Shown here piece after piece: positions 21,541 through 59,789 of a stretch of 64,000 bases of DNA. The notes beneath the pieces were generated by a model, which was not told where the DNA came from, did not search any database, and saw nothing but the letters and a program-made list of their open reading frames with translations. This DNA is from Octopus vulgaris (taxonomy: Eukaryota), in assembly GCA_951406725.2 (NCBI GenBank), contig OX597831.1:20770001-20834000 (forward strand), written 5' to 3'. How positions within the stretch are numbered: the first letter of the stretch is position 1; every line of letters starts with the position of its first letter. Position numbers and translations under genes: made by a program.

Positions 21541-21647
21541 ATATATATATATATATATATATATATATATATATATATATATATATATATATACACACAA
21601 ATATATATGAAAGAAGGTTTGAAAATGCAATTTTAAAGATGTTTATT

Positions 21648-21690
21648 CACTTGACCGGTTTCACTTTTTTAGAAAAAGATTGTCAAAAGT
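21648..21690 (-). ncRNA. Type-I hammerhead ribozyme, U3-A8 core variant
   Basis: Minus strand ACTT-TTGACAA-TCTTTTT(CT)AAAAAAGT-GAAA-CCGG-TC-AAGT. Confidence 0.65.
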
Positions 21691-22219
21691 AAAATGGGAA
21701 GATTTGTAAAAACTTTGTTGCGTTAAGTACTGGTTGTCACAAAATATTACAATACATATATACATTCTCTCATAATAATAAGAAAATGTTAAAAACAGTT
21801 TACAAGGAAATATCTTGAGAAAATATTAAACAAAAATTTCAGAAAAATATATTAGGATTTCATTAAAAATCATGTTTGTTTGGAAGTATCTATGTATATA
21901 CACAGAAAAGTATTAGTTCAAAAACAGTCATATATGGTAGTATATATATATACATAGAAGGAAATATATTTAGGAGTTTACAAAGAATTTGAGATGAGGT
22001 CATATATTAGGATTACAGTTTCTAATGAAATCCTAATATATTTTTTGAAATTTTTGTTTAATATTTTCTCAAGATATTTCCTTGTAAACTGTTTTTAACA
22101 TTTATTATTATTATTATTATTATTATTATTATTATTATGAGAGAATGTATATATGTATTGTAATATTTCGTGACAACCAGTACTTAACACAACAAAGTTT
22201 TTACAAAGCTTCACATTTT

Positions 22220-22262
22220 ACTTTTGACAAACTTTTTCTAAAAAAGTGAAACCGCTCAAGTG
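22220..22262 (+). ncRNA. Type-I hammerhead ribozyme, U3-A8 variant (stem III mutated)
   Basis: ACTT-TTGACAA-ACTTTTT(CT)AAAAAAGT-GAAA-CCGC-TC-AAGT. Confidence 0.55.
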
Positions 22263-22870
22263 AATAAACATCTTTAAAATTGCATTTTCAAACCTTCTTT
22301 CATATAAATTTCCACTCGTGTGGTACCTTACAATTTCACTTTGCTATCTACAAATATATATATACATATGCTACATATCAGAGGAGGTTTCAAGCAGTGA
22401 AAATGTAGTACAGCAAACAGCGGTGCCCTGATCATTCGCAACTCTCTAGCTGAAATTAGCAATATATATATATATATATATATATATATATATATATATT
22501 TGTATGTGTGAGTGTGTTTATGAATGTGTATGTGTGTGTGTGTGTGTGTGTGTGTAGCTGAAATCTACAGAAAACAAAACATGGAGACAGGCGAGGGAAC
22601 AAAAAGCGAGTGTATTTGTTTGACTCACGGGAAGAGGGGAAAAGGTTTTGACAATTCGAGTCTGCGCTCCTTGACAGAAAGTATTGAGAGGGAAAATGGA
22701 GAGAAAAGGAGAAAAAAAGAAAAAAAAAAAAGAACACAAAGCAGAGAGAAAATAATGTATAGGGAATAACGGTTCAACATGATGAAAAATATATATACAT
22801 ATATCTATATATGTATATATTAGTGAATTGAAGAAATGGAGTTGAACGAAGATTGAACAGAAATCGTTTT

Positions 22871-22961
22871 ATTTCATTCTACACGTGTTTCGAAAGGCAC
22901 AATTTACCAAATTCCGATTGAATAATGAGACCATATTGTGTCTTTCTCTTCAGGAAGAAAT
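22871..22961 (-). ncRNA. Type-I hammerhead ribozyme with long stem II (mirror copy)
   Basis: Exact reverse complement of 23131-23221. Confidence 0.8.
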
Positions 22962-23130
22962 AGGAAATCCGTTGGAAAAAACAAAAACAGAACAGAGGCG
23001 GAGCAAAACAAATCGAACTAGGCTCCTAAGAGCCCATGGCCAAACAGTTTGGCCATGGGCTCTTAGGAGCCTAGTTCGATTTGTTTTGCTCCGCCTCTGT
23101 TCTGTTTTTGTTTTTTCCAACGGATTTCCT

Positions 23131-55924: not shown

Positions 55925-56580
55925 CCAGGTATTCATTGATTTAATTGTGAATAGGGCCTTGCTATGGAAAATACTTGGGAAACGTGGATGTCCAGATCAA
56001 ATTGTATCTATAATTAAATAATTTCTAGATGAAATGGGCGCTTGGGTCAATGTCGGTGGTTGTATAGCGGGAACCATTCCTGTAGAGAAAGGTGTCAAGC
56101 AGAGTGCCATTCTTGTCCCAACTCTCTACCCTTAGTTCTTTGCTGCTGTTTTTACTCATGCTTTGGGAATATATGTCAGGTGTTGATATTCTGGCTTCCT
56201 CTTTAATCTGCTCTGATTTGCTGCCAATTCAAAAGTTTTCCAGTTTCTTATTCGTGACCTCCTTTATGCAGATGACTGTAACTTAGTCACTCGTACAGTG
56301 GATGACATGCAAATACTTATGAATCGTATTTCTGCTTCTTGCAAGGCACTTGGATTCAGAATTAGCCTGGATAAGACTGTTATAATGTTCCAGCCTGCAC
56401 CAGGAAATCTACATGTGGGACCAGCTATCTTGGTTGACGGAACAATACTGAAATTAGACAAGTTTGTCTACCTGGGCAGCACACTCAGCCGTTCTTGCTC
56501 CCTGGATGATGATATATCTTTCAGGCTGCATAGAGCAACTGATTCCTTCCAGTCTCTTCAGTCTCGTGTCTGCAAGTGCT
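55925..56580 (+). pseudogene. RTE (BovB-like) reverse transcriptase fragment
   Basis: LWKILGKRGCP, GVKQSAILVPTL, DLLYADDC, LGFRISLDKT, FVYLGSTLS..LDDDISFR. Confidence 0.9.
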
Positions 56581-57302
56581 AAAAATAGCTTTCCTTGAAG
56601 TCATTGGCCCTCATGGATGTATAGTGCCCTGTAATGCTATCTGATGGTTTAAAGTTGCTCTGTATATCACGACCCATGAGACGTAGGATCTTCCTAGAGG
56701 GTAGCTGGTATGGTTTCGAAAGCTGCAGGTTAGGGTTTGGGGTTGTGTGAGTAACGACCCTGCCAGTTCGCCGCCTTATTTGTATGAACTATTGAAATAG
56801 AAAGTTTGAGTAAATCTCGTACAGAGACCTTTTAGAGGAGAAAACTATTGAAGAGAATATCAGATTTCTGTACAGCATGTGCAGAAAGTTTGTCCAAGGT
56901 GCACTCTCGTTGTATTGGTAAAACACATTGTAAGAGTTTCAGAAAAGTCCATGCCGAGATACAGTGAAAAATCAGTGAAAAAATCATACTTGGAAGTGTG
57001 GTGAAGTGACTTTAGGCTATAGATCAGTGACATAAGTTCATGAAAAGACTAGGGAAGAATGTCCATTCACAGACTGTAAAACCAAAGTTCATGCAGTAAC
57101 TAGAACCTAGAGATCAAATATGGACTGTGGTCAAATTCTATACTTGAACATACCTAGATTAGAAATCAACCCCATACTATGAAAACAAGCTTGTTTGTCT
57201 ACATACGGTGTTAATATATATATATATATATATATATATATATATATATATATATATATATATATATATATATATATATATATATATTTATTATATAGAA
57301 GG

Positions 57303-57353
57303 AGCTTCTACAGGACTAGAACTGTTTCATTCAAGAGAAATCTTCAGGAAGCT
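57303..57353 (-). ncRNA. Type-I hammerhead ribozyme (mirror copy)
   Basis: Reverse complement of 59611-59661. Confidence 0.85.
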
Positions 57354-59610
57354 AGTTAACAAGAATTGTATTGGCATTTATACATTTAGGCAGGTTTAGG
57401 CAGGTATGTGTATATGTATGTGTATATGTATGTGTATGTATATATATGTGTATGTGTGTGTGTGTGTATACATGTGTGTATGTGTATGTATGTATGTATA
57501 TATATGCGTGTGTATGTGTATGTGTATATGTACATATACGCGTACGCTCGTGTGTTTATGTATATGTAGGTACGTAGAGTTATCTATGTGTGTATTTATA
57601 TGTACATGTGTAAGTATGTATATATATATATATATATATATATATATATATGTATGTGTGTGTGTGTATATATATATGTATGTATGTGTGTATGTGTATA
57701 TATATGTGTATATGTGTATATGTGTATATATATATATATATATATATATATATATATATATATGTGTGTGTAAGTTTATATGTATGTATCCGTCTATATA
57801 ATAGGTAACTGCACGTACATATACTTAATATTTATTATTTATTTTTTGAGTATGCATGTATGAATAACTGCGCGTATATATATTTTACTATTTACTTATT
57901 TTTTGAGTATGCATGTAAGTATGAATATAAGGAGGCGCGTGTGTGTGTGTGTGTATGTGTAAGCATAGATATATGTATACTTTTACGCATGGGTGTACTT
58001 ATGTGTATATATGGATGCGCGCGTGTGTGTGTGTGTATGGGTACGCATGTACATGTGTATGTGCGTGTATGAGTATATGAGTATGTATGTATGTGTGTGC
58101 GTATATTTGTATATGTATGTATGTATATGTATGTGTGTGTATGAATATATATGTATATATGTATATATGTATATGTATATATATATATATATAGATATAT
58201 ATATGCGCGTATATATATGTATGTATGTGGGTGTGTGTATGTGTATAAATGTATGTATGTATGGATGTATGGATGTATGTATGTATGTATACGTATGTAT
58301 GTGTATGTGTGTATATGTATGTATGTGTATGTGTGTATATATGTGTATATGTGTGTATATGTGTATATATGTGTATGTATGTATGTGTATGTATATATGT
58401 GTATATATATGTGAATATATATATATATATATATATGTATATATATATATATATATATATATATATATACATGTATGTATTTGTATGTAGGTGTACGTGT
58501 ATGTGTGTGTATTTATATTTATTGGTGTATATGTATAGACTAGCCTTCTAAGAGTGTAGACATGAATCTGTACGTACGCGTACTTATGTGTATATACGTG
58601 AATGTATGTAGATGTATGTATGTATGAATATAACGCGTGCGTGCGTGTATGTGTATGAGTGTACGAATGAGTGAGTGTACATGCTAAAGAGTGTGCGTGA
58701 GTGAATGAGTGCTTGTTTTCCAGTAGACAGATAAATGGACTGGCTGTCATAGCCAAGATGTTTGTGACCAAGCGGCCAAAGATAACAAAAGTAATAAACG
58801 AAGATAATAAAATTAAAATTAGGGAATGGGTCTGTATTTGTATGTGTATATATATATGTGTGTATGTGTAGGTATGCATAGGTACACATATGTATATATA
58901 TATATATATTTATATATGTATATATATATATGTATGTGTATGTATGTGTGTGTATATATGTGTGTATGTGTATATATGTGTATATAGGGACTAGTGTGCT
59001 GTGTGTGCATGTGTGTGTGTGGATTTGTGTGTGTATGCGTGTATGTGAGTATGTGTGTGTATGTGTATATATATTTTTCTGTGTGTATATGTATGTGTGG
59101 TCGTGTGTGTATATATACATGTGTGTATACGTGTATGCATGTGAGTGTGTGTATGTATACATATATGTGTATGTGTAGATATGTATATGTATGTGTAAGT
59201 GTATATATATGTATATATATATGTGTGTGTATGTATGTGTGTATGTATATGTATATATGTTTGTATGCGTGTGTATATATGTATACATATGTGCATAGGT
59301 ATAAGTGAGAATCTCCTTATTTACCTAAAACTCTATTCCCCCTTTTTTTTATATATATATATTTTTTTTTATTTTTATTTTTATTTATTTTATTTAAATT
59401 TTTTTTTTTAATTTTTTTTTATTTTTTATTTTTTATTTATTTATTTATTTTTTTTTTTATTTATTTATTATTCTATCTAATTTAACACTGACTCCTTGAC
59501 CACTCACCCAAGTATGATATTTTGCGCTATGCCTACCCCCAAAAAGTCCCCCACCAACACCCCTTTAAACCTGCCTAAATGTATAAATGCCAATACAATT
59601 CTTGTTAACT

Positions 59611-59661
59611 AGCTTCCTGAAGATTTCTCTTGAATGAAACAGTTCTAGTCCTGTAGAAGCT
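59611..59661 (+). ncRNA. Type-I hammerhead ribozyme
   Basis: AGCTTC-CTGAAGA-TTTC(TCTT)GAAT-GAAA-CAG(TTCTAGTC)CTG-TA/GAAGCT: 6-bp stem I, complete core; cleavage predicted after A59655. Confidence 0.85.
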
Positions 59662-59789
59662 CCTTCTATATAATAAATTAATTTTACTCTGCTATGTATT
59701 GAGTACCTTATTTACTGTGGTTAACCCCGAATCAACCCGGGACCTATATATATATATATATATATATATATATATATATATATATATAT

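Follow-up and report, generated by a model that had tools for sequence, protein, structure and literature searches.

Four inverted-repeat elements in TA microsatellites of Octopus vulgaris as probable Penelope-like insertions, one of them a non-coding hammerhead unit

A 64,000-nucleotide stretch of the Octopus vulgaris genome (contig OX597831.1, positions 20,770,001 to 20,834,000; hereafter the window) contains four elements, designated E1 to E4, that lack evident sequence similarity yet are built alike, each with two inverted arms around a spacer, a tail beyond one arm and flanking TA repeats. What kind of elements they are, and how such different sequences came to share one shape, is the question raised by this locus. 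The initial annotation took them for a diversified system of microsatellite-targeted, ribozyme-bearing, non-autonomous Penelope-like retroelements that would be mistaken for miniature inverted-repeat transposable elements (MITEs). As described below, the four are very probably separate insertions of Penelope-like elements (PLEs) in (TA)n, three of them truncated 3' ends of families with open reading frames (ORFs) and one a non-coding tandem hammerhead unit likely using a PLE enzyme in trans; their shape likely results from priming off both target strands at two fixed RNA sites.

Layout, families and coding parents of the four elements

As seen in Table 1, all four elements (E1, 21609-22345; E2, 22818-23428; E3, 53597-54130; E4, 57286-59744) have inverted arms, a tail past the right arm only and TA-rich flanks, as initially described. 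The arms are identical in E2 (228/228, around a centre of 1 nt) and E4 (113/113), 98% identical over 119 bp in E3, and match in 252 of 292 alignment columns in E1, whose right arm holds a (TTA)n expansion. Spacers do range from 1 nt in E2 to 2.2 kb (2167 bp) in E4. The tails had been put at 50 to 150 bp, which holds for E3 (95-110 bp, its inner end being blurred by AT-rich sequence) and E4, while the tail of E1 falls below that range at about 39 bp and that of E2 was measured at 154 bp. The placement of all four tails on the right had been considered a possible coincidence, and it is compatible with chance, simple arithmetic giving 1 in 8; elsewhere, four of eight E4 pairs carry the tail on the left. 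The window is microsatellite-dense, with 73 runs of (TA)8+, and the TA runs are short or degenerate left of E2 and right of E1. The absence of evident similarity was also confirmed, since 46-175 of 200 shuffles reach the scores obtained when the four 3' regions are aligned with one another. Short motifs common to all four tails were dismissed as chance.

Table 1. Features of the four elements, in window positions.
Feature	Position	Strand	Remark
E1 left arm	21609..21869	-	inverted copy of putative Neptune-type PLE 3' end, begins at inner end
E1 hammerhead motif	21653..21686	-	U3-A8 core variant, palindromic stem III, predicted GUC cleavage
E1 spacer	21870..22018	-	inverted copy continuing ~150 bp further upstream in the element than the forward copy
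E1 right arm	22019..22301	+	forward 3' end
E1 second hammerhead copy	22224-22257		right arm; one change breaks first stem III pair
E1 tail, ~39 bp	22307..22345	+	inner end to outer end
E2 left arm	22818..23045	-	inverted copy, begins at inner end
E2 hammerhead motif	22880-22953		left arm
E2 right arm	23047..23274	+	3' region of predicted Hydra-type PLE (908-codon frame in locus L122)
E2 hammerhead motif	23139-23212		right arm
E2 tail, 154 bp	23275..23428	+	
E3 left arm	53597..53715	-	inverted part of 487-nt unit, begins at inner end
E3 spacer, 187 bp	53716..53902	+	forward part of 487-nt unit, contains hammerhead
E3 hammerhead	53806-53889		in spacer; window copy has U at core position 3
E3 right arm	53903..54020	+	
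E3 tail	54021..54130	+	carries 10-nt motif conserved also in the tails of two Hydra-type families
E4 left arm	57286..57398	-	inverted copy, begins at inner end
E4 hammerhead motif	57309-57347		left arm
E4 spacer, 2167 bp	57399..59565	+	microsatellite-like 3' untranslated region of predicted Hydra-type parent
E4 right arm	59566..59678	+	
E4 hammerhead motif	59617-59655		right arm
E4 tail, 66 bp	59679..59744	+	

Searches of the 2.8-Gb genome returned 1806 (E1), 2004 (E2), 1806 (E3) and 994 (E4) first-look candidates, of which 40 were scored each time; the counts given below come from the 20-30 loci obtained per search, and the samples are the best 30-40 matches of 1000-2000 candidates. The best-scoring identities were 99-100% for E2 and E4, 85-98% for E3 and 90-94% for E1, and all four elements are members of high-copy families.

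Longer copies of E2 and E4 continue into open frames. The end of an ORF is present upstream in all seven long E2 loci. Locus L122 comprises a TA run, an inverted copy, a short tail piece, a 908-codon frame and a 3' region of about 1 kb; its inverted copy begins at the same base as the left arm of the window E2. Of eight loci selected by the E4 ORF, seven have the E4 3' end downstream of it and equally oriented, and one has the middle of the 3' region; in L179 the order is tail, 713-amino-acid ORF, 2.6-kb 3' region, hammerhead, tail. The C-terminal 159 amino acids of the E4 protein were 92-100% identical in 150 of 150 scored genomic matches. The spacer of the window E4 is 90-96% identical to other copies, and 65% of it consists of alternating purine-pyrimidine runs, versus 16% for the window.

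The Hydra clade of PLEs was defined in PMC8557442 (Craig et al. 2021), and excerpts of its supplement include the (TA)n-inserting Hydra-1_Obim from Octopus bimaculoides. The E2 and E4 proteins are 40% identical over 489 amino acids, and both contain RW and DKT motifs, the residue after RW being R or L (K in a third family, as in the RWK of the clade), with no CCHH in the endonuclease. The E4 protein has a CxCx5C linker as well as CxxC and CxH motifs; the linker is not found in the E2 protein. E2 was assigned as Hydra-type via its identity to E4 and not on this motif. As Pfam queries, the two proteins gave no reverse transcriptase (RT) or GIY-YIG match, and searches of PDB sequences yielded nothing useful; their relatives match RVT_1 and GIY-YIG, and the predicted model of the E4 protein (mean predicted local distance difference test score, 92.5) finds telomerase TERT as its best structure matches. 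The comparison with the published Hydra proteins in the supplement excerpts was by eye. E2 and E4 are regarded as the 3' ends of predicted autonomous Hydra-type PLEs with open RT and GIY-YIG frames.

No ORF was found directly upstream of E1 in 8 long loci, and walking upstream through a CA-rich region led to broken RT and GIY-YIG frames. L194, L197, L199 and L206 contain GIY-YIG fragments, with a C-x4-CxxC linker, that are oriented like the E1 3' end and lie upstream of it. The GIY-YIG match came from broken frames, as all ORFs met are broken; the linker and a CCHH-type GIY-YIG, features common to Neptune and Nematis, were read in translations of several copies. E1 is accordingly classed as the probable 3' end of an older Neptune-type PLE (Neptune or Nematis). 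Overall, the Penelope-like origin proposed initially was borne out. The term non-autonomous applies to E3 only and fails for the other three, because E1, E2 and E4 are 5'-truncated copies, the 3' ends of ORF-bearing families.

Further features of these families and of related ones were noted. The E2 protein (P0001, L122:4890-7616) has long serine-, asparagine- and glycine-rich stretches between RT and endonuclease, which may be compared with the asparagine-rich inserts described in rotifer Penelope (PMC3846280, excerpts). A further young Hydra-type family (L251-L280) has 727-codon open frames, with no internal stop in 59 of 63 scored matches, and a tail of 71 nt; its ends are of the same two types. 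Another Hydra-type family, the L113-type family (L113:1767-2784, L341-L360; 3426 first-look candidates), is related to E2 (56% in the endonuclease region) and has a covarying hammerhead with a long stem II and a similar inner end. Microsatellite-like 3' cargo, kilobases long, TG/TA-rich in E4 and CA-rich in E1, was seen at window 57399-59565, L135:6464-9724 and L176:7740-9140. As these 3' regions are homologous among copies, many genomic simple repeats may be retroelement cargo; the E4 family spreads kilobases of microsatellite-like DNA per insertion.

All four families bear a hammerhead motif, a predicted ribozyme. The type I motifs of E1, E2 and E4 sit in the arms and read outward, as the initial annotation had recognized, and their predicted cleavage sites are 44 nt (E1), 62 nt (E2) and 23 nt (E4) inward of the arm end; the fourth, in the E3 spacer at 131 nt, had been missed. 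The ribozyme-to-end distance, the constancy of which had been named as a check, is fixed within each family and differs across families. Conservation of the motifs among copies was confirmed, the core and cleavage parts being unchanged in 43/44 copies of E2 and 33/33 of E4; the E1 hammerhead is fully intact in 17/35 copies, with the U3-A8 core. This core variant is described for hammerheads in PMC4209133, whose excerpts also report PLE hammerheads, including opposite-strand pairs 100-700 bp apart. A strict hammerhead descriptor gave 5 matches in the window (mean 0.1 in 20 shuffles), both E2 copies plus three unrelated motifs, and did not recover E1, E3 or E4. A relaxed descriptor, written after seeing those sequences, recovered the left E1 motif, the E3 motif and the two E4 motifs, against a mean of 0.03 matches in 30 shuffles, and did not recover E2. 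No hammerhead was among the Rfam matches listed for the window (150 of 366), which are mostly microRNA families on hairpins and microsatellites, all below the gathering score. The three strict-descriptor matches outside the elements have short stems and lie at 47876-47971 (+), 55713-55789 (+) and 10009-10082 (-).

Fixed ends, pairing and the origin of the inverted layout

Each family has two fixed 3' ends, an inner one at the start of the tail and an outer one at its end. After removal of duplicate loci, and with run-on into a next unit counted as outer, the ends fell at these positions in 49/50 cases for E1 (13 inner, 36 outer, 1 other), 53/53 for E2 (22 inner, 30 outer, 1 tandem), 64/69 for E3 (18 inner, 25 outer, 21 tandem, 5 other) and 63/63 for E4 (22 inner, 40 outer, 1 tandem). 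A (TA)4+ run follows the inner or outer end in 37/49 (E1), 51/52 (E2), 37/43 (E3) and 61/62 (E4) cases, versus 9.4% of window positions. Tail-blind samples, obtained for E2 and E4 with queries lacking the tail, gave 15 inner and 15 outer ends for E2 and 14 inner and 16 outer for E4, with (TA)4+ next in 60/60. The TA flanks are not due to chance, and the microsatellite targeting proposed for these elements stands; target-site duplications are unreadable inside TA runs. In L027, L071, L113 and L243, different PLE families adjoin across one TA tract, which suggests repeated insertion into the same microsatellite.

Where two outward-facing ends are paired in one insertion, they are mostly of different type. 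Tail-blind pairs were inner plus outer in 8/8 cases for E4 (opposite-strand matches up to 10 kb apart, the intervening sequence not being read) and in 16/17 distinct insertions for E2, the exception having a shortened tail; the E2 count derives from 22 rows, with 5 insertions seen twice and 8 loci without a partner within 1.5 kb. Homotypic pairs were absent from both tail-blind sets, and independent choice predicts about half. With tail-containing queries, E3 gave 10 inner plus outer, 4 irregular and no homotypic pairs of 14, its sister subfamily (see below) 8, 3 and none of 11, and E1 10 inner plus outer, 1 irregular and 1 outer plus outer (L038) of 12.

The junctions are variable. An inverted segment adjoins the element in 17 of 30 E2 loci, in 15 cases starting at the inner end; none was detected in 6, and 7 extend beyond the edge of the locus. 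The inverted arms reach 194-559 nt, the forward parts begin 375-910 nt from the tail end, and the joints mostly share 1-10 bases. In the 7/14 long stretches that contain the probe, two-ended E4 insertions span 790-7585 bp. The lengths of arms and spacer are determined afresh with every insertion, and the spacer is element sequence copied on one side only; that of E1 is present in reverse orientation in 21/29 other copies. Arms also resemble each other more within an insertion than between insertions, with differences of 0.57 versus 0.94% for E2 (22 insertions), 0.44 versus 1.48% for E4 (12), 0.89 versus 4.16% for E3 (11), 1.79 versus 3.59% for the E3 sister (7) and 5.9 versus 7.4% for E1 (9); in these five sets, 0-7 of 2000 re-pairings were as low.

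These observations are likely explained as follows. The GIY-YIG domain would nick both strands of the TA tract; one nick would prime reverse transcription at the outer site, the tail end, and the other at the inner site, the tail start. Both complementary DNAs (cDNAs) would stop early and be joined head to head, often via a few shared bases. Sequence present in both cDNAs would become the arms, sequence present in one of them the spacer, and what lies between the start sites the one-sided tail. More tentatively, a single RNA may be the source of both cDNAs. Excerpts of PMC11167929 report, for a PLE of anole studied in vitro, cleavage and extension of both strands, two internal start sites that bound the tail and a predicted dimer. 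The pairing rule and the role of the ribozyme are proposals.

Several points weigh against this interpretation. The samples favor young copies, because the best-scoring loci were taken. In single-strand folding none of the four hammerhead motifs beats shuffles, and for E1, E2 and E4 the structure of minimum energy is other than a hammerhead. The interior of the E4 pairs was not read, irregular ends occur in E3 and its sister, and L038 is homotypic. Within-insertion arm similarity could also be explained by fold-back synthesis or later gene conversion, and the 9-bp imperfect palindrome at which 4/15 E2 inversions fold would suit fold-back and a microhomology hot spot alike. In addition, the excerpts of PMC11167929 report no strand difference in start site in vitro, so that strict inner plus outer pairing is not predicted by that work alone; they also report hammerhead cleavage to be dispensable for insertion.

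The most serious alternative keeps the same PLE identity and derives the inversion from fold-back self-priming, an origin proposed in excerpts of PMC3846280 and PMC8557442: one cDNA copies itself, and an endonuclease cut at the inner site leaves the one-sided tail. Near-identical arms, perfect hairpins such as E2 with its 1-nt centre, and joints at the palindrome are all accounted for in this way, and the inner plus outer pairing follows by construction. However, in the window E1 and in L075 the inverted part extends further upstream than the forward part, which fold-back of one cDNA cannot yield unless a deletion followed, and L081 and L088 have lone inner ends followed by TA, partnerless within the locus. 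Fold-back may account for some perfect hairpins; as the general origin of the layout, we consider it rather unlikely.

The non-coding E3 unit and further features of the window

In the case of E3, the repeated sequence is a 487-nt tandem unit, found in arrays of up to four full units plus part. The copies have only more of this unit in common upstream, and no shared upstream body was found in 30 loci. The hammerhead strand has no frame longer than 56 codons and the opposite strand none longer than 109, and no autonomous parent was found among the loci examined, which cover a small share of the E3 copies. Fragments of PLE ORFs, of differing families, occur in 5/64 E3 loci; in L071, the only one read, the fragment starts past a TA run. 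A sister subfamily is 73% identical (2396 candidates) and a third type 71% (L270). In a hand-chosen alignment of 25 hammerheads (12/30 from E3, 12/31 from the sister, 1 of the third type), 98.9% of cells pair, versus 30-46% in slid-register controls, and 8/15 pairs change on both sides, which 0/500 shuffles reach; this covariation touches stems I and II and the palindromic stem III and represents few independent events among the three subfamilies.

E3 copies are dispersed over many contigs, end at the same two positions in TA tracts and have inverted partners. As read from its sequence, E3 appears to fit the definition of a non-LTR retrozyme (one lacking long terminal repeats), yet bears PLE-type ends, and because its ends are of the PLE kind it was likely moved by a PLE enzyme in trans. 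A 10-nt tail motif is conserved in E3, its sister, E2 and the L113-type family; it was not seen in E1, E4 or the 727-amino-acid family, bar one neighboring element in the E1 set and one in the E4 set. In comparisons with the L113 tail, the E3 tail is beaten by 4/1000 shuffles and that of the sister by 2/1000, the other five tails giving no signal. The motif points weakly to a Hydra-type PLE related to E2 as the putative partner; against it stands that it is short, was spotted post hoc and concerns one of six tails. Contigs of four runs presumed to be RNA cover most of the E3 unit and two of them cross the unit junction; since circle and tandem, or RNA and DNA, are indistinguishable here, they were not used as evidence.

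On balance, we are slightly inclined to regard E3 and its two sister subfamilies as the short interspersed element (SINE) equivalent of Hydra-clade PLEs, that is, a hammerhead RNA, circular or multimeric, that has an inner and an outer priming site of its own and is put into (TA)n by a PLE dimer that would prime one fixed site per target strand. If so, E3 would be insertion-signature evidence that PLE enzymes mobilise metazoan retrozymes, and the optional tail of PLEs would become a strict rule of one inner and one outer end.

Alternatively, the E3 arrays might be a PLE terminus amplified locally by slippage or unequal crossover, E3 not being mobile as RNA, a route discussed in excerpts of bioRxiv 10.64898/2026.07.22.740005. 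Units differ by 1.6% within an array and 10.9% between arrays (14 units, 5 loci), and a parent ORF may have been missed given the small share of copies covered. Yet the low within-array divergence is equally expected from copying one circular or multimeric RNA, the dispersed copies end at two fixed positions and have inverted partners, and in 21 cases what follows the outer end is a further unit, as opposed to the ORF into which E2, E4 and a third Hydra family (22 cases) read from there. We therefore hold local amplification to be improbable. A still poorer account is that of four fixed non-autonomous hairpin families, in which the whole arm-spacer-arm-tail unit is copied. It would suit the absence of a linked ORF in E3 and the four E2 inversions of 15 that have nearly one hairpin; however, longer copies of E1, E2 and E4 continue into RT/GIY-YIG ORFs and the junctions and spans of E2 and E4 vary, by which it is largely refuted for these three and very improbable as a whole. 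Finally, MITEs or other terminal inverted repeat (TIR) transposon derivatives targeting TA would share the inverted arms and TA flanks, but asymmetric ends, many copies without an inverted arm, varying junctions, RT-encoding parents for three elements, conserved hammerhead cores and the head-to-tail units of E3 make this reading hardly credible; as the initial annotation anticipated, symmetric TIR ends on every copy and a DDE partner were not found, and such copies would be misfiled as MITEs.

Other features were observed in the window. A segment at 35131-36052 has symmetric inverted ends of about 55 bp, TA flanks, broken frames and no tail, and so offers a TIR-type contrast to the four elements; an 80-amino-acid piece of it had no Pfam match, and the motifs in its broken frames are presumably Tc1/mariner DDE, the segment then being a probable Tc1/mariner relic. 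An old inverted repeat (73%) lies near TA runs at 48225-48325 and 48520-48620. Abundant dispersed and tandem SINE-like repeats with a 183-216 bp period, which we take to be cephalopod SINEs, occur at 29730-30508, 37009-37623, 41305-41560, 43860-44099 and 59791-59919. A minisatellite array of 19-bp period spans ~62190-63200, and degraded 3' fragments resembling the RT of long interspersed elements (LINEs), in opposite orientation and with a mutual match of 68-69%, are located at 40300-40770 and 45447-46511.

Comparison with known systems

The layout itself has already been published for PLEs, and does not represent a new system; E1, E2 and E4 are ordinary truncated copies. Excerpts of PMC8557442 describe a 5'-truncated copy in inverted orientation, a tail of 30-40 bp that is often confined to one end, a bias toward (TA)n and putative non-autonomous PLEs; its section 15 leaves the formation of the inverted repeats and tails unresolved. 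The same layout is taught to curators in PMC8969392 and is also described in PMC3846280 and PMC11167929, in the portions seen of each.

The predicted parents of E2 and E4 resemble the Hydra clade in their single ORF with RT followed by a C-terminal GIY-YIG, the RW and DKT motifs, a hammerhead near the 3' end and insertion in (TA)n. E4 additionally shares the CxCx5C linker, CxxC and CxH, and its hammerhead is like three published ones of Hydra elements in that U occupies both closing positions of stem II. They differ in length (~3.7 kb for E2 and ~5 kb for E4, versus the published '<3 kb'), in the 3' region of E4, which is 2.6-3.3 kb of microsatellite-like sequence, and in the E2 protein, which lacks CxCx5C and has a long serine-, asparagine- and glycine-rich linker; the published Obim hammerhead sequence also differs from those of E2 and E4. 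The tails of E2, E3 and E4 (66-154 nt) differ from the published 30-40 bp, that of E1 being ~39 nt. The putative parent of E1 is like Neptune and Nematis in its C-x4-CxxC linker before a GIY-YIG with an internal CxxC and two histidines, its tail of ~39 nt and its microsatellite flanks, and unlike them in its long CA-rich 3' region and broken ORFs.

E3 resembles the metazoan non-LTR retrozymes (Cervera and de la Pena 2020, PMC7229834; bioRxiv 10.64898/2026.07.22.740005) in being a non-coding tandem repeat whose units measure a few hundred nucleotides and contain a single type I hammerhead each, in its low GC content and in its dispersed arrays and monomers. Its 487-nt unit slightly exceeds the quoted 150-450 bp, and the excerpts of neither source describe insertions like those of E3, which are targeted to (TA)n and have inverted partners and a pair of fixed 3' ends. 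The putatively non-autonomous Chlamys PLEs of PMC8557442, such as MRC1, are likewise non-coding PLE derivatives, with pseudo-long terminal repeats and head-to-tail multicopy insertions; they generally resemble their autonomous family at the 3' end, whereas the part E3 has in common with the autonomous families found here is a tail motif of 10-20 nt only.

In LINE-1 twin priming, two target-strand primers act on one RNA and yield a 5' inversion joined by microhomology, the second primer landing at variable internal sites and the two segments not overlapping. In the elements described here, by contrast, neither site varies, and the overlap between the two segments produces inverted repeats.

PLEs are named a strong candidate for the enzyme moving animal retrozymes in PMC7229834, and bioRxiv 10.64898/2026.07.22.740005 derives retrozymes from PLE termini by co-occurrence and phylogeny, stating limited evidence on the life cycle; the words 'tail' and 'octopus' are absent from the main text of the preprint, as far as it was available. 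We found no report of PLE-type ends on retrozyme insertions or of a counted inner plus outer rule, subscription papers and Repbase lying outside the scope. What is added to these systems is a direct insertion-signature link between a retrozyme and the PLE machinery, together with a pairing rule; what deserves to be retained is E3, along with the long tails and the counts of paired ends. As E3 carries a PLE signature in a genome with young intact Hydra-type ORFs, trans-mobilisation becomes testable with a named RNA and protein, and inner plus outer pairing, arm overlap and within-insertion similarity provide countable predictions for the existing in vitro assay.

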